A DNA stretch of 63,991 bases, filler included, from Dirinaria sp. TL-2023a (taxonomy: Eukaryota): assembly GCA_051941275.1 (NCBI GenBank). It is 3 parts of 3 records of this genome, joined end to end, with 100 filler letters (N's around TTAATTAATTAA, not from the genome) between each part and the next. Parts side by side here need not be neighbours in the genome. Positions count along the whole stretch, not along the records: positions 44,189 to 63,991 come from JAVEBF010000312.1; 2 more parts are not named here. One strand, written 5' to 3'. Position 1 is the first letter of the stretch. The number at the start of each line of letters is the position of its first letter. Position numbers and translations under genes: made by a program. Below, piece after piece: positions 7,650 to 51,238 of this stretch. A model generated the notes under the pieces. It saw only the letters and a list, made by a program, of their open reading frames with translations. It was not told where the DNA came from and searched no databases.

Positions 7650-8824
7650 GTTCAATCTTACTTTTCTTGTTTGGCAAAAAATGATGTTTACTTCCAAGTA
7701 GAGTCAATTTCGATAAGAGATAGAGCAGGGAATGAGAAAGGAAAGCGTCAGGCAGCAAGGAGCGCCTTCGCGATCACATGTTCAGCCAAGGGATGAGAGA
7801 ATTCCAGGTGGGATTCGTGTTGAGTCAACATCCCTACAGTACCTATTGAACCATGGTGCTTATCTGCATTATTGGCCCATGATTGCTAATAAGCGTTGTG
7901 CACAACGCCATCGCTCCGATGACTCTTGAACCCATCTTTCTCGAATTGACTCCCCACCTCGATCAAGTGAGGGTAAGTCAGACTCTAAAGAGCACTCGAT
8001 ATTATTGTGCCGTGGAATGTTGTGAGGTGGGTACTTTACAGTACTCGTACCTGCACGAGCTACGGTAGGTAGAATCAAGGAGTCCCTCGGGTGCATTGCC
8101 AAGCGTGCCATGCCCGGTTGTACCCGAACCGCTCCCGAACTTAGGTACGTCATTTAGGGGCCCTCGGGCTTACATAAGGTAAAATGAAGCCAGGAGGTCA
8201 GGTACGAGTACCGTACGTTTTGCATCAACAGCATCCGCCTCAGACGTCTCATGAAACGACACAGGAAATTGTCCGTGACAGCCTCATACTGAAAATCTCA
8301 GCCCAATCGTCTCATACGCAGCATTTCATGAGGTTTCTGCCTTCATGAAACCCACATCAATCGAGGACTCTGTGAGTCTAGAAGACTCATAGGGTAAATG
8401 CGTGTGTTTGCCTATCTCGGGGTCGGCACCATGAACCTGCTCTATCAACATGCCCGTCGACCCCGTTGACCGCCGAATTCTGAAATAACTTTGTGGTATC
8501 TGCTTGGATCGTCAATAGCATTGCTATGTACCCTGGTTGAACTGCAATGCTCCTTCACATTTTGAACCCTGTACCACCAGATCGGAGTGCACGCCCGCGG
8601 CACAGGAGCTAGCTTCTGCAGTATTGAATGCACTTCCATATAATCAAAGAAAATGAAACAGTGTCTGCTTGAGCTGTTGGGGCAGCCCACGGAGCAATCC
8701 TTCTGCAAAGCTGCCTTGGGTGGCTTAGGCTTTGTATATCCACATGTAAACTCGCTTTTAAGCTTGCAGGCCCTTCTGCTGTATATTCTATGTTACGACT
8801 ACCATTGTCAGTCTTTGGGTAGCT

Positions 8825-10857
8825 ATGAAATTCTGCAAAAAATTGTGCTACTTTTTTGGTCAGCTTCTCTGTTTTAGCATTTCCCTCTGCCAGTGTCAAC
8901 AGAAGGCACTTCCATCCCATGTGTCTTCTGAGAACAGCTTTGAGCTTCGCCAGGCTTCTGGAGTTATTGCGGGGAAGAATTTTCTTCGCCGTGGTTATCA
9001 AGCCTGTGAGTAAAAAATAGTTGCGATCAAATCACGAGGGTTGGTCATAGAATTGACCCATTCGGAATAGCAATTGTTGTCGGAGATTGGGTTTACATTG
9101 ACGGAGGCGAATTTACCTTTACCAGTGATGGTAGCACAAATTATCAATATTGTACGTTTTCACCAAGACTTACCTTTCATTTAGATATAAAATAGCTAAT
9201 GTTCGGTCAAAGCAAACTCGCTCTTAGCCATAAATCTTGCAAGTAATTGGACAAATTCGACTGTCACCATGCATTCAAACACGAAACCGAACGGAGCGCC
9301 ATCACTGAACAACCCTTCACTCTGGTATCACGAAACAGACAATTTGATTTACGCAGGTTTCAGCGGCTGGGCGTCGAGATTTGGCAACCATCCACAGGAT
9401 CCACCACTGTCGCTTTGGACCTTCAAACCCGACGGCACCGGAGCAGGAACCTGGAATGAATCTATCGGGTCCACATGGCATTCATGGCGATCACTAACGC
9501 GTCCCCGAACGCCACTTGAAACATACTCTCGTGATAGAGCTTTCATTATGGGTGGCTGCCGTGAGGAGTCAAACCTCGGTGATTGGTCTGAAGACGCATT
9601 AGGTGGGATGGTCCAATTCAACATGTTGGATCGATCATTTGCGAACACCAGCATTCCCTGTTGTAATGCAACCGGTGGTATCAAGAAAGGTGCCTTACAA
9701 TACGTTCCGTCTTTTGGTCCCGAAGGCCTTATCATCGCCATGGGGGGACAAAATGCTCACAGGACCGGTAATTTTGCTTCTTTGATCGACTTCACCGTCG
9801 TTTCTGTGTTCGACCCTGTAAGCCAAAAATGGTGGAATCAGACTACCACGGGGAATCCACCGAGTCCCAGAATCGAGTTCTGCGCTGCTGGCATTCCTTC
9901 AGCGAACGACACGTATGAAATGTGAATGTCTTCTGTTGTATTCTAGCGAGCTCCAGCTTACGCTACTGGCAGATTCGTGTACGCTGGATGGAATACCGTA
10001 TTGGGCGGAGATGCTATCCAGTTCGATACTATCAACGTTCTAACTTTACCAGCCTTCCACTGGCTCAGCGTTGCTTACATCCCTCAGATGCCACGACACG
10101 CTCATTCTTGCAATGCTGTCGGAGGTAGCCAGATCTTGGTGATTGGGGGTCTTGACACAAATTCCAAGATCGTTTCGGGGCCTGGAGCGTATGAGTCAGT
10201 CTTCAATAGCACACCGGATCCATTCACGCAAGGCTTAGCCATATTCGACATGACCACTCTGACTTTCCAGGATCAGTATACCGCAAAGTCTTCGCCTTAC
10301 GAACAGTCTGCACTCGTAAAGCAATATTATTCCACGTCACAGCAGTGAGCTCCCCTCTCGCGCACCTTGTAGCAGATGATTAACATTAGTGTAGGTCATA
10401 TATACGGAATCTTTCACCTGGCGTTGCAGCATTGATGAAAACGACTCATTTCACAGATATCAACCAGTCTAATATATCAGCATCACCAACCACCCTAGCG
10501 ACTTCGGCGATTTCCTCGAGTAAAACTGCTACTTTTGCACTGCCAACCTCGAATCCTACTTCGTCTTTATCGAAGCCCAACATTGGTGCCATTGTAGGTG
10601 GTGCCACTGGAGGATGTGTAGCCTCGTTACTTTTGGTCACAGGCTTTACGTTGTACTTGAGGAGGCGCCGAAAACCCCAAAATCCCGTAACGGAAGTGGA
10701 CACGGGAGTTGTGGTCGGCGGACAGGCAAGCATAAGCGAGCTGCATGCCACCGATAGGCCCTTCGAAAGTGACGCGCGTGGACTCTACGAGATGCAAGCT
10801 GGACACATGGTTGAACTTGAAGGGTATACATCTGAACAGCGCCGTGAGCTATTGTGA
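8825..10857 (+). CDS. Kelch/galactose-oxidase-type beta-propeller type-I membrane protein (multi-exon)
   Basis: Signal peptide in exon 1 (8825-9004); kelch-like blades (VYIDGGE, IIAMGG, VFDPVSQKWWNQTTTGNPPSPRIEFC, PRHAHSC, ILVIGG); S/T stalk; TM helix GAIVGGATGGCVASLLLVTGFTLYL followed by RRRRK; tail with xELx motifs. Confidence 0.8.
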
Positions 10858-11854: not shown

Positions 11855-14800
11855 ATGGACCCTCTTTCGCTTGCATTCGGAGTCGCCGGAGTCTTGGGTC
11901 TCCTCGGGCAAACATTAGCAACCACCAAAAGATTTGTACACTTATTGAGGCACGGTAAGGAAGCTGCGGCTGAATTACAAAATGAGCTTACTATTCTCCA
12001 TTTCAATGTGTCACGGCTGGATCGCATGCTCAAAGACAGCGCCCATGGAACCCTTCATTTCGAAGCTACTTCCGTGCTCTTGTCAAGTACCTTTACTTTC
12101 AAAGACAGGCTAGATGCTTTGTGTAATGAGCTCCGTGCTGCAAGCACGAGCCGGTTTGCGTCCCTCAAGTGGCCACTGAACAGCAAGGAGCATCGTGAGA
12201 CCATCCAAGACCTTCGAGCTTACGCTCAATGTGTTCAATTTTCTTTGAGCAACGATGGTTTTGCATTGCTCTCGAAGACGGCGACTGAAGTGCAAGATGT
12301 TTTGAGCAAACAATTGGAAGCTTTTCGGATCCTCGAAGCCATCAATCATCGGACTTCGTGGGCTGAGCACTCGTTATCAGAGCAGACTCAAGCGGTCAAC
12401 GATCAACTTTCCGCTGAGAAGCGTAAATCAGTCTTGAATTGGATCTCAACCGTCAAGCATGAACAAAAGCATCATGACATACGCACGCCTCGGATTGAAG
12501 CAACCGGTCAATGGTTTCTCGATCAAGGCCATTTCAAGCGTTGGCGCGATGAACCGTATCCACAGAGCACCGTACTACTCTGCGAGGGTATCCAGGGTTC
12601 TGGAAAATCGGTGCTAACGTGAGCATAACATTATTCTGCTACAACGAAGTTCTGCTGATTGCGTCAAGATCACTTGTCATCGATCATTTGATGGATAACC
12701 ATGCGAGCCAGACTATCGCGGTGGCTCATGTCTACTGCGACTACAGGGAGAGTGAAGATCAGTCAGCGGAGAAGCTGATTGCGAGTTTGCTGAAACAACT
12801 GGCCATTGCCAGACCGAATCTACCTCAAGCAGTAAAGGATTTTCACCTGGATTTTGAAAAGCAGATGAGGCAGCCTCAGCAGCAAGATTTTGAACGGGCT
12901 TTTCTACTCACGTGCAATGACTTTGACAGAGTTTACGTTGTGATAGACGCTTTAGATGAGTGTGCTGCAAGTCATAGAAGAAAATTATTGGGCTTTCTTT
13001 CAACCGCTCGGAGACAGCCTTCTATCAGAATCTTCATTACAAGCAGATCCTACCCGGAGCATATTATCAAACAATTCCATCCCGCCCAAAAATTAGTTAT
13101 TGAAGCTGACGAATCGGATTTGAGAAAGTACATTATTCAAGCGGTCGAGGACAGTGACAACTCAGAAGCGATAGACAATGAGTTCCAGCAAGTGATAGTC
13201 GAGAGGGTTTGTGCAGCGGCAAAGAATATGTAAGTTCATCATTCACTTGTCCCGTGAATTTGAATGCACAATGATCTGATTGGCTTGTCGGGACCCAAAA
13301 GAAGAGTTGCATGATCACTGCTTGAACGGTCTCTTAATCAAGGGAAGGTCCAGTATTACACACACTCGTAGAAATTTGATTCCATCGTACGGCGGCAGAA
13401 AAGCATGCTGTTTCATCATTGAAGACTTTTTGAATGATCTGGCTGATTTTTCCACAGGTTTCTTCTGGCGGTGTTGCAGATAAACGCCGTTTTGAACGGC
13501 GTGTCCGCCGGTGAAATGGAAGCAGCTCTGGAAACTATGCCCTGCGGCCTTGATGGGGCTATCGAAGAGACGTTGCACAGAACCCAGCAGCAACAATCAA
13601 GCAGGAAGAACCTTAGTGTGAAAGCATTAATGTGGATATCCTACGCTAAGAGACCGTTACGTGTAGACCAATTGGCCGACGCACTTGCTATCAATTCAAC
13701 AGACCGGACATGGAACCCACGGAACCGTCCTGATTCTAGGCTAATCCTGGAGTCTTGCTTGGGACTTGTAACTTTAGACCAGGAAAGCTCTGTCATTAGG
13801 CTAGTCCATTATTCCGTTCAGGAGTACTTCATTCGGCATCGAAAACAACTATTTCCAGCTGCAGAGGAGATGATTGCGGAGAACTGCCTCACTTCTCTTC
13901 TCCACGATGCTTTCGATACAGGTAGTTGCGTGGACGAGAGCGCTATCCTATCGTGTGTATCAAACTTCCCTTTCTATCTATATAGCTGTCGTTACTGGGG
14001 CCATCACGTCCGAGAAGTGGACAGCACAAGGATTGATCAGCTAGCGATGATTTTTCTTGAGGCGCGACCACATTTAGCTCGCTCATACCAGCTCTCGCAA
14101 TGGGATCTTGGCCGCAAGAGAGTCTACTGGGAGCTAGATGAAGCTAACAGCTGCACCGGTCTTCACTTAGCCTGTGTTTTTGGGCTGGAGCAACTTGCAA
14201 AGAAGCTTCTAGAGAAAGCTAGCCTTCCTATTGATGTCACTACCACCATGGGAACGACGCCGTTGATCAAGGCGGCAGCTGGCGGACACAGAAGCTGCGT
14301 AAGGATGTTGATGGAGAGGGGTGCCGATCCTTTGAAAGAAAATTGGTATGGAATCAGCCTGCACTGTGCGGCTGAAGCTGGTCATGTGCCGGCTATCGAA
14401 GAGCTGCTGTGTAATGGGGTGCCTGTGGACATCAAAGATGCTCACGGACGAACCGCCTTGCACTGTGCCACATCAACTGGCCACATCGGTGCCGTAAATG
14501 CATTGCTTTCACAAGCAGCTGATGTAAACGCAACGTTTTCGGACAGGACGCCGTTGCTCCTAGCTATATGTCTGGAGCAACGTATCGAATTGATCAAGAC
14601 CCTCCTTGAATACCACGCGGATATAGAGTTTGAAACCGAACATGGTGATAGGGCCGTCCATGAAGCAGCTACTATGGGTGCGGAGCAGACACTCTTACTG
14701 CTTTTAAAACACGGGGCAAAAGTTGACATGAAAGATGCCTCGGGTTTTACGGCTCTGCATTGGGCCGCAGCAAAGGACCATGCTAGCATCGTTCGGCTTC

Positions 14801-15244
14801 TGATAGAGCATGGTGCAACAATCGATGCAAAGTCAAACGAGGCGGCTACGCCGCTCCTCTGCGCAGCTGAAGAAGAAAGCGTTGATAGCGTGAAGGTTCT
14901 ATTGCATGCAGGTGCCGATGTCGAAGCTGGAGACGACGACGATTATACACCACTTCACGCTGCAATTAGCAGACACGATACTGGCATTGTGCGCATGTTA
15001 CTCGAAGCTGGGGCCAACACTGAAAGAAAGAACAAAGCTGGTGACACAGCTATAGTACTCGCACATCGCGAAGGCAAGGATGTAAAAATTATAGACTTAG
15101 TTCAGGCTGCAGGGAAGCTGGCGAGATTTGGACGGAAGCGACGACACTTAGAAGGTCTTTTCAAAGCTCAGGTAAGTCTTTTCAACTGAAGAATGATGAC
15201 GGATATTCATTGTCACACAGGATTTTGGGAGATTTCTAAAATAA
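11855..15244 (+). CDS. Fungal NLR-like STAND protein: HeLo-like N-terminus + NACHT + ankyrin repeats
   Basis: N-terminus MDPLSLAFGVAGVLGL; Walker A GIQGSGKS; Walker B VYVVIDALDEC; MFLLAVL and RLVHYSVQEY NACHT motifs; about 8-9 ankyrin repeats (TPLIKAA, TALHCA, TALHWAA, TPLHAA). Introns 12619-12668, 13230-13457 and about 15172-15220. Confidence 0.9.
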
Positions 15245-22003: not shown

Positions 22004-22103
22004 NNNNNNNNNNNNNNNNNNNNNNNNNNNNNNNNNNNNNNNNNNNNTTAATTAATTAANNNNNNNNNNNNNNNNNNNNNNNNNNNNNNNNNNNNNNNNN
22101 NNN
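22004..22103. other. Artificial contig-joining spacer (N44-TTAATTAATTAA-N44)
   Basis: Exactly 100 bp, with a six-frame stop linker flanked by N runs; identical to 44089-44188. Confidence 0.97.
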
Positions 22104-43489: not shown

Positions 43490-44088
43490 CCTGCGCTCCC
43501 GCTGCAATCACACCCAATCCTGCGCAAGCATCCACCATTCTTCCCCACTTCTTCACCGAATGCCCAAATCCACAAAATCTTTGTTTCGACGAATATCACC
43601 CATCAGATCACCGTCCCATGTCATATGTCATGATGAAGTCCAGTATAGGGTTCAATTCATGACAAAGATATGGAATGGGTAAGTAAGCGACATGTGTTCT
43701 TGAATGATTGTCTCTCTCAGGAAAAGGAAAAGTAAAGCTCTACAATATGTAGGGAGAGAAAGGGGAAACTTTTTTATTTTCTTCCCCTGCAAAAAATGTT
43801 TTCCAATCACGCGGATTCGGAGAGATGGCATGGACACTATTATTTGTGTGAGATTGTAGAATAGAAAAAAGAACCCTTTTTTTAACAAAAACAAAAACAA
43901 AAATCAAAGTCGATCCAGCATGACTAACAACAGTACTCGAACTCCTAACCTTAAGAAAGTGCTAAGAACGGTAGGGATTTAATTCTTCCAATCATGCTGC
44001 CAAAATCAGAAGGATCAAGTCAGTCACTGTCTTACTATCCTCGCCCCTCTATCCCCCCCTGGTCCCCTCTTCTACATACTAGGAGGAC

Positions 44089-44188
44089 NNNNNNNNNNNN
44101 NNNNNNNNNNNNNNNNNNNNNNNNNNNNNNNNTTAATTAATTAANNNNNNNNNNNNNNNNNNNNNNNNNNNNNNNNNNNNNNNNNNNN
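44089..44188. other. Artificial contig-joining spacer (N44-TTAATTAATTAA-N44)
   Basis: Same 100-bp structure as 22004-22103. Confidence 0.97.
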
Positions 44189-44227
44189 ATCGCTAGGTAG
44201 TTTTCTTTGTTTTTCATTTGTTTTTCC

Positions 44228-44353
44228 TTGGTGAGCTTGGGTGGGTTGGCGAGCTTGGATGGGTCGGTGGGTTTGGATGGGTCGGTGGACTTGGGTGGTT
44301 TGGTGAGCTTGGGTGGGTCGGTGGGTGGGTCGGTGGGTTGGTCGGTGGGTTGG
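44228..44353 (+). repeat. G/T-rich degenerate short tandem repeat (GGGTCGGTGG / GAGCTTGGGT units)
   Basis: Visible 12-18-nt periodic repeats of GG-runs near the contig start. Confidence 0.8.
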
Positions 44354-44564
44354 CTGCATTACTAACCGGACATTGGGGTGGACGAGGCGCTTGCCATGGT
44401 TAGGAGGACGAGCCTTTTGGCATGGGGTAGGTCCGGGCTGGTGGCTCGACGGTTTGGGTAGGGTGGTAAGTCTTTTGTTCCCTTCCTTCAACCCAACTAC
44501 CCCTGGCTAACCTACTTCCAGCTCCTACCCACTATTGACTCGGCATGCATTCAGTTGGTGCTGG

Positions 44565-45036
44565 GCTGCAGCGGCGTACTATAAGAGGGTTCTTCGGAAC
44601 ATTGACGGAGGTACGCCGTCTGTTTGAGGGTTCTGGGGCTGTAGCAGCGGCGTACCATAAGAGGGTTCTTAGGAACATTTACGGAGGTACGTCGTCTGCT
44701 TTAAGTCAGTGGCGCTGTCGCAGCGGTGTACCATAAGAGGGTCCTTGGGACATTGACGGAGGTACACCGTCTGGTTCAGGTCACTGAGGCTGTCTCAGCG
44801 GTGTACCATAAGAGGGTTCTTCGGAACATTGACGGAGGTACACCGTCTGGTTCAGGTCAATGGGGGTGTAGCGGCGGCATACCATAAGAGGGTCCTTGGG
44901 GACATTGACGGAGGTGTGTCGTCTGCTTGAGGTTGCTGGAGCTGTCGCAGTGGTGTACCATAAGAGGGTTCTTGGACATTGACGGAGGTACACCGTCTGC
45001 TTGAGGTTGCTGGGGCTGTGCTGCACGGTGTACCAT
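44565..45036 (+). repeat. Tandem repeat with a 75-76-bp period (6 full units plus 1 partial); each unit is a predicted hairpin
   Basis: ATAAGAGGGT anchor at 44581, 44657, 44733, 44808, 44884 and 44960; consensus GCAGCGGTGTACCATAAGAGGGTTCTTCGGAACATTGACGGAGGTACACCGTCTG. Confidence 0.92.
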
Positions 45037-45355
45037 TATCTGGGATTCTTGTGTGTAAGTTTCCTCATCTCCCACCTTACTGTGCCTCCGCTGGCCGGAT
45101 ATCACTCATGCAGAATAGGGGCAGCAAGGAACGAGCCAGGGTACGCGTCTGGTGTAAATGGCACACACTCAGTGTGACTGCTAGAGATCGCAGAGTACTT
45201 GCCACATGGCGTACCGATATCTGGGATCCTTGTGTGTAAGTCTTGTCCTTCCCTTTCTCCTGATCACGATCACACAACACTGATCACCGAGTAGGGGCAG
45301 CAAGGAAGGAGCCAGGGTACGTCTGTGTACGGCAAACCTGCATCTCAGTGGGATT
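45026..45355 (+). repeat. Degenerate direct duplication of about 180 bp
   Basis: TATCTGGGAT(T/C)CTTGTGTGTAAGT and TAGGGGCAGCAAGGAA(C/G)GAGCCAGGGTACG each occur twice, about 180 bp apart. Confidence 0.75.
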
Positions 45356-45490
45356 GCCTCGTGGTATCTGGGGGTTTGACAATGATGACGGCGAGACTCG
45401 CCATCTCGCCTGGTTCAATGTCTTGACGGCGGTGACGATGAGACTTGCCAACTCATCCGAGCCAATGTCTGGATCCTGACGGAAGTATTT

Positions 45491-45706
45491 GTCCGATTCA
45501 AATGGATCATTTGGGCACGGTCTTAAGTCCACATTCAAACTTCGTCGCTTGGGCCAGCCTCTGTCCGTTTCAAATGGACCATTTGGGCACGGTCCTAAGT
45601 CCGCATTCAAACTTCGTCGCTTGGGCCAGCGTCTGCCCGTTTCAAATCGACCATTGGGCACGGTCTTAAGTCCGCATTCAAACTTCGGCGCTTGGGCCAG
45701 CGTCTG
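45491..45706 (+). repeat. Tandem repeat with a 72-bp period, 3 copies
   Basis: CAAAT(G/C)GA(T/C)CA...GGGCACGGTC(T/C)TAAGTCC(A/G)CATTCAAACTTCG at 45499, 45571 and 45643; the third copy has a 1-nt deletion. Confidence 0.9.
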
Positions 45707-45730
45707 TGGAATCTGAGGGATTTGCGGGTT

Positions 45731-45875
45731 CTGGGGGTTTGCCATCTCCCGTCGCCAGGATGGTCGACTTTTCCTAGCATCCTGGTCCAGGTGATGTGCC
45801 GTGGGCTCTGGGGGCTTTGCCGTCTACCGTCGCCAGGTTGGTCGACTCTTCCTACCCTCCTGGTATAGGTGATGG
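45731..45875 (+). repeat. Tandem repeat of about 77 bp, 2 copies
   Basis: CTGGGGG..TTGCC.TCT.CCGTCGCCAGG.TGGTCGACT.TTCCTA...TCCTGGT..AGGTGATG occurs twice. Confidence 0.8.
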
Positions 45876-47831
45876 CTCGCATCAGTGCTGGTCACACGCT
45901 GATGCTTGTGGTGTCCGGCTTGACTCCACTATGTAGCGAGTCTTGTACTCGTTGCTTCGCAATGGTAGCTAGTCTACTCCATTGCTATCCACTGCCTTTG
46001 CATTGCCTCTTGTGCCCTTTTCATGGCCTTGGAGTTCCTGCAAAACTTTGGCGTAGTGGTAGATCAAAAGCAAGTATAGTCCCGAGTGTCTTACTTGCCG
46101 TGTCTTGCGAATCTCGGGCTGTGCCTGGGTATGAGCAGATGCACATTCTTTTCAAGTTTGGCCCTCGTGGCCTTACTTACAGTCATATCTCTATGAACTT
46201 CTGGGCTATGCCCGGTTGTGAGCAAGATATGCAATTTTTGGAAACTTTTCTGCCTGCTTTATGCGGGATCTTTAATTTTTTTTTTTCTTTTTTTTTTTTT
46301 TTCATCGGGTGCCTTTTGCTGGCTCAAGGGGATCTGGAGAAGGAAAAGAAAAGAAAAGAATGGTTGTGCTTGCGAGTGGAATGCAAGCATCAGGCTCTAT
46401 TATGTGGAAGACTTGCTTACTTTTGGGCACAGGCTCTAATGGGTGGTTGACCAGTTAACCTAAGGTACCGCTACTTCAGGTATGAGTGGATGCCCTGTAC
46501 CCTAAGATAATTCACTTGCCACACTAAACCCCATCCAAGCGGCTCCTCCCGTGCCTGCCCCCTTTACCCAGGCCCATTCAGAGCATATTGTCCCTGGGCA
46601 TGTGCCTTACATCACAACACACAAACAGCAGAAACAACCATCTCCTTCCTCGTCCTCGCCGCACCGCAGGCATTTTGTCTTAACAGGATTGGTTACCGGC
46701 TTCGTGAGCGTCTCGATCGACTGTGTTGGCTTGACTAAAATTATTCGTGTCGCTTCTGATCTGCTCTGCATATTGTAGCGTTGGTAGTAGATCGGTAGGT
46801 GGTAGGTTTTAGTATTTAGTATTTGTGGACTGCTGGAAATTCGTGATTAGTCCTGAATTTTTACTCAAGTCCCGTGCTGTGCTGATGCTAACAGGCAGGA
46901 AGGTCCAACGTACCTTTGGAAGTGTTCGTTTTTGGAAAGACGAAGATAGTGGTGGTGATGGTAGGCTGGTGCTCAAGGGAAAAAGAAACAGCCAGGGTTT
47001 TGAAAATGTTGGCTTTTGAAAGGTGGAAGATGGTGGTAGTGGTCGTGGTAGTAGGTTGGTGCTTAAGGGAAAAAGAAATAGCTAGGGAAAGTGGAATGCT
47101 TTATAGACAAAATATCAAGACTAAAAACGTGAGCCATGTCAAGTGAAACAGTCGTATCAGTATGAAACAGTGACTCGTTCACACCAAAAATCAAGCGAAT
47201 GTCCCAGAACCAGGGCAATTCATGACAACTGCAAACCGTGGGTTCGTGATTTCAAGGCCGGAACTTAGATATTCTGGTCACCGAGCAAAACACATGCAAG
47301 TGAATTGAACATCGTGACACAGAAGTACATCGGTTAGTCAGACACAAGTTAGACTGGAAACTTCGCAATAAAGAAGCGAAATCAGGCGAAGGAAGTACTG
47401 CGACTGGGTTCCTTCATTCCAGTATGTGAGTGATGCCTCGTGACAGAATCACGTAGGGAGTGAAACATTTGGTGTTGTGTGCATTGCCGCATCTGTCTGA
47501 GGACGAGGAGACTTGGCCAATTGAAGAAAAAAGAAGTACGCATAGGGATTCATATTGACATCCTGTATACAGTGAGATAGATAGTATACCTATAAAACAA
47601 GCCATGTCTGCGTTCGAAGAGGAAACAAATGGTGACGAAATTGCGAAGCTTTTCCAGATCAAACGAGAATCAAGCAATCATGCACTTGTGCCAGGAAGCA
47701 AGCTTCACTTTGACTCTTTGATGGATCCAGAACCGCTTCGTAGGCCAAGCTGTCCATTACCGTACAATATGTGTTCCACCTCATCTTATAATATAGTCCC
47801 TTTCATCAGCCCGTCCAGCTTTGGCATCGAT

Positions 47832-48592: not shown

Positions 48593-50275
48593 CTATGTTG
48601 CGTGAGTAGGTATCGAGGCAACAGCTTCAACCGGCGCTGATCCGGAAGGCCGCGCTTGCTCTGTTTGCTCCGTTTGCTCCGGCTGCTCATGAAATTGCGT
48701 AGTCGACTGCCGCTCTTGGTGCGCTTTCCACTGCGTATATATATCCAATGCGGCCTCGTACTCGTCGGGAACCCTATGGGCTTCCATTTCATCCTTGATA
48801 CCGAGTCTCACGAGACGCCACTTCCCCCAAAGGACCTTCAGCAGGCCCCCCACGCCAAGAATGAAAGCTATGAGTTGTCCAAGACTAGTTAGACTGTTTA
48901 GACCATCAATGTGATTCCAAACAATTGTGAGCTCAACCTGAACAATGAGTATGATAATGATCAACAGATTATAGATGGCACTGAGGATCCATAGCCTTGT
49001 TGCCATCTTCAGCGGGATTTGGTGTAATTGCACGTCAGAAGCTATCGCAACAGTTCTCCAATCCGGGGGCTTAGTCTTTTCTGCGAATTGGTACGAGCGA
49101 TGCAAAATGCGCGGCCAGATCAACAGCGGACCCTGAGCAAGCCCTGTAAGATGAACATGTAACCTCCAGCGCAAATGCATAGGGATGATCCCCCACGTAG
49201 ACCATATAAATATAGTATATAGACATTTTGAAAGGGGGACCAACCTCGTGTCTGCCGGGGGGTTGCGGTTCGGAATATAGAATCGCAAGAAGCCTCTCCA
49301 GAGGATAATCACGCGTTTTCGCCCAAGTAGAGCCTTGGGTGGCTGGCACTCTGTGAAGAGAGAATTGAGATATGATTCAGCCTCCAACACTGCAGACATA
49401 ATTTGCTCCTGTTGTGGGCTCATTATCGAAGTCTTTCTTTCTTTTCCTCGTTCCTCAGGGGGGCCATTCGTTGAAGGTAGGTCGCCGTTGGGCTCAGAGG
49501 CACTTGATGATTCCTCAACGCGACTACCTTTAGGCAATGGTGGTTCAGTGAGTGTTGGGCTTTGCTTCGCAGGTTCGGCAGGGACTCCTGCAATGGCTGA
49601 TTGATTGTTGGCGTTGATACCACCAGCAACCGAGCGAGCAGCTTCCACAAAGTCCAGTTGAGACTGCTTTCTTAAGAGTGAATGTAGGATATCCATCGGC
49701 GTGCTCGAACCAAGCACTAAGACTGACCATACAAGGCCCCATAATGAAAGGACTTGCATCACCGTTCTCATCCACCCATACATATTGGCTCGTACAAGAT
49801 AGCACGCATATGTTCCGCCTTTGTGGGTTGCAGCTCCCTGTGTAGCCGGACTTGTTGAATTTCCTACGAAACGTCTGCAAGGAGTAGGCCGCATTTCGTC
49901 AAGACCTTTCCACCAGAAAAAGATTGCAAATATGAAACCCCCATGGAAGATAGCGCTCTGTATAACCATGCGATCCCTTGAGATTCTCATGTACCGGCTT
50001 GTGAATCTGGTTTGCAAGAGACTGACCATCGCTATAACAACAGCGATATACAAGAGCAAGAACGCCTCGACCGCATAGGTTTTCCGTGCATTGTGTACAT
50101 AGATCAAGCCGACGACGGTTAAAGCGAATAAGAAAAGATTGTTCACTGATCGCTGGGCGTTCGCTTCGCGGTAATGAAAGTAATTGGCAAACCAGACAGC
50201 TAAAGCCTGGCTGTAATAACCGATCCGTATGCCAATTCCGTAGATGTCAGGATTCCCTGTAAAGCCGCATGCCAT
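48593..50275 (-). CDS. Multi-pass membrane protein of an uncharacterised fungal family
   Basis: Intronless ORF from MACGFTGNPDIYGIGIRIGYYSQ; about 5 N-terminal and 2 C-terminal TM segments (IIIILIVQVELTIVWN...SLGQLIAFILGVGG). Confidence 0.8.
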   Translation of the reverse strand: MACGFTGNPDIYGIGIRIGYYSQALAVWFANYFHYREANAQRSVNNLFLFALTVVGLIYVHNARKTYAVEAFLLLYIAVVIAMVSLLQTRFTSRYMRISRDRMVIQSAIFHGGFIFAIFFWWKGLDEMRPTPCRRFVGNSTSPATQGAATHKGGTYACYLVRANMYGWMRTVMQVLSLWGLVWSVLVLGSSTPMDILHSLLRKQSQLDFVEAARSVAGGINANNQSAIAGVPAEPAKQSPTLTEPPLPKGSRVEESSSASEPNGDLPSTNGPPEERGKERKTSIMSPQQEQIMSAVLEAESYLNSLFTECQPPKALLGRKRVIILWRGFLRFYIPNRNPPADTRLVPLSKCLYTIFIWSTWGIIPMHLRWRLHVHLTGLAQGPLLIWPRILHRSYQFAEKTKPPDWRTVAIASDVQLHQIPLKMATRLWILSAIYNLLIIIILIVQVELTIVWNHIDGLNSLTSLGQLIAFILGVGGLLKVLWGKWRLVRLGIKDEMEAHRVPDEYEAALDIYTQWKAHQERQSTTQFHEQPEQTEQTEQARPSGSAPVEAVASIPTHAT

Positions 50276-51238
50276 ACGATCTAGATTGCTGACCGCTTCA
50301 ACAAGATTGAGAAATTCGACGCCAAGAGAAAGAAGTGCTTGATGCAGCGAAGCAGAAGTGCTAGCCAAAGTCTAAAGTTGTCCAAGGGAGACCGGCGGTA
50401 GCACCAATAGGCGATTATATAGACAGGCGATAATATGCTCTAAAGAAAGACTGTATGAGGAAGAAGTCGGAATGGTGGCTTAAGGAAGAAAGCAACTTAT
50501 ATGTATCAGCAAAGACTAGGGAGAGGAGACATGAGACAAGTAGGCATGCTTTGAGACACACTTTTCGGGCAATAAGAAATATGGGTTACCAGTTGAGAGA
50601 CCTACCCAATAGGCGAAGGCCTCTCCTGAAATCCATCTAAATAAGTATTGATGGGCCGGTTGGGGGGGTGTGGGACGAAGTTTCGTGGGCTGCAAGTAAG
50701 CGCCGAGCGCTTTAAAAGTGAAAAAGGAGCAACTCGTTACGAGCAACCTTTGAGACGGGAAGTCCGATTTGGTTCCTCGTATTGATCTCTAGACGCAACT
50801 GAAAGAGAACGTTGACGAACAAGCCCCAAATCGTTTCTCATGCGTAGCAGAAAGAAGCGTGAAGAGATTTTGAGCGCATCAGACCGCGACTCCGCAAGCT
50901 GACCGTCCTGGGCGTCAGCTTGTATGACATCACATAGCTCTGGCACAAGCTCCTGGTCGGTTACAACTTATCTGAATAGCTTTCTCGTAGGTCAGAAGAA
51001 GCTTGTAAGATTAGAAGCTGGAGTCTTTCTAGTGCTTTTAGTGTAGCTGGGATTCACGTCGGCCTATGTTCGGCCAAAAAGCTTGAAACCCCATCTAAGC
51101 TTCTGAAGCAAAGTAGGTACCAAGCATAAATCCGCTTCAGCTGGTTTATCTCTCAGATGTCTTGCCCCGAAAGGCTAATCAAGAATATTGGCCATATCAT
51201 CGCCTTTGAATCCTTCGACCTGCTCCTCCGATGGCGCC

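Follow-up and report, generated by a model that had tools for sequence, protein, structure and literature searches.

A tandem array of six hairpins with a near-invariant internal loop, probably under selection, in a repeat-rich segment of the Dirinaria sp. TL-2023a genome

The window, the whole stretch of DNA analyzed here (63,991 nucleotides), joins three unrelated contigs through N-padded linkers with a stop-in-all-frames word (22004-22103 and 44089-44188); features flanking a linker are not neighbours. The array described below lies on the third contig, G000:C312, which begins at window position 44189, and the genes to its left in the window are therefore not its true neighbours. Elsewhere in the window, NLR-like gene pieces are found at 11855-15189, comprising an NPHP3_N domain, a winged helix, and ankyrin repeats. 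The assembly as a whole amounts to 27.7 Mb in 3105 contigs. Among named proteins, the closest relatives of the Med7 protein encoded on the array contig come from lichen-forming fungi, e.g., Heterodermia and Stereocaulon (47-50% identity), which we take to place the host in the Lecanoromycetes. An rDNA contig, G000:C2117:1-3109, holds the end of the SSU gene, ITS, 5.8S, and a partial LSU gene, and breaks in an intron-like insertion of the LSU; its ITS/5.8S region presumably is basidiomycete-like, and this contig may be co-binned or chimeric.

The array starts 377 nt from the start of its contig. Tandem Repeats Finder reports a repeat of period 76 at 44568-45036, with 6.2 copies and a score of 569; the span 44565-45017 contains six full units of 74 to 76 nt each, followed by the 5' arm of a seventh, so that the 75-76-bp tandem repeat claimed by the first-pass annotation is real. 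The loop core recurs at spacings of 76, 76, 75, 76, and 76 nt. On the + strand each unit forms a 12-bp outer stem with one bulged U, a purine-rich internal loop of 8 by 9 nt, and an inner stem of 3 to 4 bp, with a linker of about 22 nt between hairpins. Unit 1 occupies 44565-44640, with its hairpin at 44569-44622 and loop strands at 44581-44588 and 44601-44609; unit 2 (44641-44716; hairpin, 44645-44698) carries the sole internal-loop change of the array. Units 3 (44717-44791; hairpin, 44721-44773) and 4 (44792-44867; hairpin, 44796-44849) are followed by unit 5 (44868-44943; hairpin, 44872-44925), whose stem is the most diverged, with one private two-sided change and three G-U pairs, and by unit 6 (44944-45017; hairpin, 44948-44999).

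An alignment of the units contained all of the outer- and inner-stem variants that had been listed, as written, among them the inner stems GTTC/GAAC in units 1, 2, and 4, GTCC/GGAC in units 3 and 5, and GTTC/GGAC in unit 6. The variant of unit 6 is present, but its closing pair around a 2-nt loop cannot form, and the inner stem there has 3 bp only. RNAalifold, run on the six units, returned the claimed structure as its unprompted consensus. On the + strand the same hairpin is the minimum-energy fold of every one of the six units; in unit 1 its distal 3 bp are open. A 17th, terminal pair (RNAalifold columns 4-59) is broken in one of the six units and was excluded from the 16 pairs counted below.

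The setting of the array, absent from the first-pass annotation, is a repeat-rich, non-coding, duplicated segment, in which two longer hairpin units lie directly downstream. Long unit 7 (45020-45152, + strand) has the outer stem of units 1 to 6 around a longer and different interior, and long unit 8 (45203-45326, + strand) is its paralogue; singly, neither folds better than shuffled sequences (z of +1.29 and -1.39, respectively). The two share a frame in which the outer stem is followed by a 5-nt bulge, a 4-bp helix, a small internal loop, and a 7-bp helix, with six one-sided compatible changes and one two-sided change among 27 predicted pairs, and the outer stem that they have in common with units 1 to 6 is kept via one-sided compatible changes. 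At the contig start, G/T-rich minisatellites of 18 and 12 bp (44228-44350) show no folding signal beyond composition (z of +0.17 for 44225-44560). Fifteen nucleotides at 44372-44386 resemble, with one indel, part of the Magnaporthe HAR-E repeat as printed in PMC1635262, a partial match that is probably due to chance. Downstream of the long units are a 72-bp repeat in three copies (45490-45707) and a 78-bp repeat in two copies (45726-45874), with two-sided changes in 0 of 17 and 0 of 14 predicted pairs, respectively. A domain at 46195-46620, with a long-range helix at 46203-46607, folds better than chance on the + strand only (z of -2.52, versus -0.43 on the - strand); a 24-bp stem enclosed by this helix, at 46280-46360, pairs a U-rich arm with a purine-rich arm and, read on the + strand, includes five G-U pairs.

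A second copy of the right end of the repeated segment (46805-47290) opens contig G000:C2632. Over the 453 nt from 46805 to 47257 the copies are 93% identical, the first 99 nt exactly so; beyond 47257 a weak match (81%) continues to 47290, and identity between the two right ends fades from 100% to 84-94% with no sharp end. We infer that the 99-nt exact overlap at a contig start is a branch of the assembly graph and that the DNA left of the right end, perhaps including the array, is common to at least two loci or haplotypes. In the assembly itself the right end is present twice and the array once, and no contig extending left of 44189 was found in it. The assembled segment showed no transposase, reverse transcriptase, terminal repeat, or target-site duplication; an inverted copy of the right-end word was not found, and the right border had no recognisable Helitron-type end. 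The 3.1 kb from 44189 to 47300 contains one TTAGGG/CCCTAA word only, the DNA left of 44189 being unassembled. The region is G/T-rich on the + strand, with intron-like signals on that strand near 46795-46895; a TATA-like word at 47105 is oriented along the - strand. The first gene to the right of the repeated segment is a 591-aa ORF on the - strand (48593-50368) that belongs to no Pfam family.

Pairing is retained throughout the array. All 96 stem cells (16 pairs in six units) hold standard pairs, 89 Watson-Crick, 7 G-U, and no A-C, a count that includes the closing pair of unit 6, sterically impossible around 2 nt; three of the 16 pairs are changed on both sides. The claim that most variation between units preserves pairing is thus borne out. 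In slid controls, merely 28-50% of cells were paired. The observed pairing percentage or covariation score was reached by 1 of 500 shuffles, the all-paired statistic being inflated because the helix borders were read off the same six paralogous units that make up the sample, and three compensatory pairs were reached by 33 of 500. The best parsimony tree gives about three to four independent compensatory events. Arms pair within a unit with 66 Watson-Crick and 6 G-U pairs of 72 and no mismatches, and across neighbouring units with 50 Watson-Crick pairs, 8 G-U pairs, and 2 mismatches of 60; a common duplication history could contribute to the better pairing within units.

The first-pass annotation had cautioned that all changes are transitions and that CpG or RIP-type decay could mimic covariation. 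The first statement holds for the stems, with 11 transitions and no transversions, but fails for the linkers (8 transitions and 11 transversions; Fisher p=0.0016) and for the single loop change, which is a transversion; the linker transversions indicate that the local mutation process is not transition-only. Variable columns number 1 of 17 in the loop, 11 of 32 in the stems (p=0.037 against the loop), and 13 of 22 in the linkers (p=0.0007), in agreement with the near-invariant loop and more variable linkers described earlier, and the conservation of the loop is independent of the choice of helices. Linker transitions include G>A, three times, and T>C against two C>T and one A>G, a spectrum without a strand bias able to fake G-U pairs; G>A is the change that would produce A-C in stems, and it occurred three times in linkers while A-C is absent from the stems. 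Decay was then simulated by placing 14 stem changes on the best parsimony tree, with 20,000 runs for each of eight settings (uniform transitions, CpG x10, strand bias x5, and a linker-like spectrum, each with two ancestors). Full pairing together with at least three compensatory pairs arose in a fraction of at most 0.0005 of runs in all eight null settings, and full pairing alone in 12% of simulations under the 5-fold strand bias. RIP-type indices are shifted mildly (TpA/ApT of 0.89, versus 0.68 in the flank). CpG decay was rejected as a sufficient cause, the pattern appearing in at most 0.05% of simulations with CpG decay or strand-biased mutation, and the caveat does not account for what is seen. 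Pairing, the spectra of stems and linkers, and the simulations together support the view that the hairpin is kept by selection; the fold and the loop look selected, and we consider selection on a single-stranded fold of the + strand to be likely.

The choice of strand does not come from energy models, which give no preference for the + strand. On each strand, none of 100 shuffles folded as well as the whole array (z of -3.65 on + and -4.98 on -), both strands folding because the arms are inverted repeats. In context, the outer-stem probability on the + strand is 0.36 for unit 1, 0.38 for unit 2, and 0.20 for unit 6, and the hairpin pair probability on the - strand is 0.82-1.0 for units 1 to 4. 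The outer stem of unit 5 forms on the + strand (0.84) and is lost on the - strand (0.01). The case for the + strand is built on this unit and on the polarity of the non-Watson-Crick stem cells, all seven of which are G-U and none A-C, as the first-pass annotation had argued. A + strand single-stranded DNA would equally tolerate G-T, and the RNA nature of the array is presumed. The competing 5-bp hairpin that had been proposed as an alternative fold is present; it is much weaker (-3.6 to -10.5 versus -20.7 to -23.8 kcal/mol for the main fold in units 1 to 5), has no two-sided change, and is broken once, but it would explain the invariant bulged U.

DNA and pattern searches of the assembly located the array at one locus only. 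The pattern search gave six other places, at the control rate, and 40 own-genome loci scored with a covariance model reached at most 13.6 bits, against 95-100 bits for the units; diverged copies elsewhere in the genome are possible, as the model scored selected loci. Viral contigs gave 0 and 4 pattern matches and prokaryote genomes 1, none with both stems. Among at least 119 metagenome matches to a short 16-nt pattern, the best of those listed scored 14.6 bits, against the same 95-100. One metagenome contig (L055:1690-1840) carries an unrelated short tandem repeat that has in common with the array the 5' loop word alone. A look-up of sequencing runs listed none and bears neither way on the question of relatives. 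Rfam 15 gave no match in the window at the gathering score, and at a relaxed cutoff of E 10 its 14 matches in 43500-46500 all fall outside the array, which thus belongs to no known Rfam family at that level. A similar array in fungi was not described in the literature listings searched, which cover mostly sources other than subscription journals.

Several candidate identities were rejected. The array is not coding, since units of 74 to 76 nt break any reading frame and an 84-aa frame across units 4 to 6 has no protein relative; likewise, no protein relative was found for a neighbouring 153-aa ORF, and two ORFs within the repeated segment belong to no Pfam family. A tRNA-derived element was discarded for lack of any tRNA in the window. 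The genome's match to the ascomycete telomerase RNA (RF02462) is on another contig, G000:C696, where matches at 8223-8380 (47.4 bits) and 8822-8867 (26.1 bits) mark a likely telomerase RNA gene. An H/ACA guide RNA requires a single-stranded H box between two long hairpins and an ACA, likewise free, 3 nt from the end; each unit has an ANANNA word and an ACA, yet these fall inside the internal loop and the inner stem, and pairing across units, which would free the H box, is poorer than pairing within them. Self-cleaving ribozymes (hammerhead, hairpin, twister, HDV-like) were set aside on the lack of an Rfam match over the array and of hammerhead, hairpin-ribozyme, and twister core words on the + strand of 44189-47300; the earlier statement that no hammerhead core is visible is confirmed over that range.

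Stems that are free in sequence and fixed in pairing, around a loop that is fixed in sequence, are what one would expect of a binding site or a catalytic core. The reading that we favour, tentatively, is that of a protein-binding platform with six sites, carried in the untranslated RNA of a repeated element that is probably mobile. The array would then be a cis-acting RNA element whose six hairpins present the fixed purine-rich internal loop, with the two stems holding the loop in place and their sequence free provided that pairing is kept. It would lie in an untranslated part of a + strand transcript, the coding part of the element being located beyond the contig start, and its six copies would form a multivalent landing site for one protein. 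The partner might be an element-encoded protein, for packaging or priming of the element RNA, or, should the loop kink, an L7Ae/eL30-type protein of the host. We infer all four components of this reading, namely, the RNA nature of the array, the mobility of the segment, the binding of a protein, and the identity of the partner.

The same selected RNA hairpin might instead belong to a cellular locus, which we regard as rather unlikely. Such a locus could be an rDNA spacer, a shared subtelomeric domain, a long non-coding RNA, or a gene that lies past the contig start and whose long 3' UTR includes the array. The gradual fading of identity in the second copy, as in gene-converted duplications, would suit such a locus, as would the G/T-rich + strand and the intron-like signals noted above, and Magnaporthe subtelomeres hold comparable repeat blocks according to the available text of PMC1635262. 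Against it, 44189-47300 has its one telomere word, the telomerase RNA is on another contig, and Rfam offers no match. The sole rDNA contig found stops within the large-subunit gene, has no contact with the array, and so says little about a spacer.

The hairpins might also be a neutral inverted-repeat minisatellite whose apparent covariation arose when template switching during replication, or repair templated by a hairpin, rewrote one arm from the other. That hairpin stems can be formed and restored by template switching is set out in the portion of PMC8794818 available; the segment is full of unrelated tandem duplications, and the independent compensatory events are few. Arm copying gives perfect pairs, however, and leaves seven G-U against zero A-C unexplained, along with stems devoid of transversions and a loop more conserved than the stems, so that we judge this origin unlikely.

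An action of the hairpins in + strand single-stranded DNA, where a rolling-circle or other transposase would recognise or nick them, appears improbable. Tolerance of G-T yields the same polarity, and with DNA parameters the outer stems of units 1 to 4 form on the + strand with probabilities of 0.78-0.91; the same parameters fail the outer stems of units 5 (0.20) and 6 (0.02). Helitrons are reportedly enriched in lichenized fungi (PMC13535494), but the right border lacks a recognisable end of Helitron type, and large internal loops that are rich in purines and have GA steps in tandem are typical of RNA motifs. Last, that each unit is a self-cleaving ribozyme or processing site, cutting a multimeric transcript to ~76-nt monomers, is very improbable: the loop has UAA in its 5' strand and GA steps in its 3' strand, and a conserved internal loop between freely varying stems, head to tail, is the layout of satellite and retrozyme ribozymes, but Rfam is silent over the array up to E 10, the core words of the three classes named above are missing from the + strand of 44189-47300, no conserved pseudoknot partner is evident, and a two-way junction this simple makes a small scaffold.

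To return to the protein-binding platform, a further conception, clearly unlikely in our estimate, would make the hairpin a new small RNA motif used six-fold, either a kink-turn variant with a 4-nt bulge or a two-way-junction ribozyme; it would build a multivalent ribonucleoprotein of a mobile element or yield self-cut pieces of ~76 nt, and the alternative hairpin, which takes up the 3' loop strand, would make it a two-state switch. We conclude that the array is a real, well-formed, and probably selected hairpin array at a single locus, and it is apparently undescribed. The catalogue of structured RNAs is thin for filamentous and lichen-forming fungi, and this array's own paralogous copies carry the covariation, which provides a ready 54-nt construct for probing, cleavage, and binding experiments. 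If it is part of a mobile element, it would indicate that tandem repeats at the non-coding ends of elements in fungi, usually deemed products of slippage, can be selected RNA modules.

Among known systems, the non-coding ends of the fungal telomeric retrotransposons FoTeR and MoTeR hold many unrelated tandem repeats (available text of PMC12857005), and Magnaporthe subtelomeric domains consist in part of compound blocks of unrelated tandem repeats bordering unique DNA (available text of PMC1635262). Like these elements and the Magnaporthe helicase-associated repeats, the segment studied here crowds into 1-3 kb of non-coding sequence several short tandem repeats that are unrelated to one another, and is of a kind that is absent from or breaks short-read assemblies. 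It differs in that the word "hairpin" occurs zero times in the main texts of PMC12857005 and PMC1635262, and in that no reverse transcriptase, helicase, or telomere tract is present at the array locus, where the DNA left of 44189 is unassembled. The Tangerine Starship, in the part of its description available (PMC13486527), comes with no mention of a tandem repeat or hairpin.

At the level of the loop, the closest comparison is with the kink-turn, for which Kt-7, U4 snRNA, and the L30e pre-mRNA were used as examples. Beside the outer stem, the array loop can be written as C-G, bulge, G.A, A.G, G.G, G-C. Given a 4-nt bulge, it thus has tandem G.A and A.G at 1b.1n and 2b.2n (columns 21.45 and 22.44), invariant in six of six units, together with C:G at -1b:-1n and with G at 3n, two features that promote kink-turn folding according to the available portions of PMC8191799 and PMC4382518. 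The standard bulge is 3 nt (PMC5061560, in the part available), whereas that of the array is 4 nt: the 3-nt test fails in both orientations and the 4-nt version passes, a relaxed signature that also appears in 3.5% of shuffled loop letters. After the G.A pairs, where a standard kink-turn goes on as an uninterrupted NC helix, the array has G.G, one G-C, and then a 5-nt bulge in the opposite strand before the inner stem, and six-fold tandem arrays are absent from the available text of PMC5061560, PMC8191799, and PMC4382518. The archaeal double kink-turn, in which one helix serves two kink-turns in series (PMC5499556, in the part available), does not match the array loop. By analogy, the array loop may work like a kink-turn, yet we do not class it as one.

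Screens for structured RNAs in fungi have found mostly single-copy motifs, single hairpins with conserved internal loops beside conserved genes, as far as the available text of PMC5640933 and PMC8216456 goes. The rpl30 and amd motifs among them are in or near conserved genes in many species, and "tandem" does not occur in the available text of PMC5640933; the array, by contrast, has no adjacent gene and no Rfam match. What it has in common with them is the design itself: a two-stem hairpin whose purine-rich internal loop is the most conserved part and is the proposed protein-binding site (PMC5640933).
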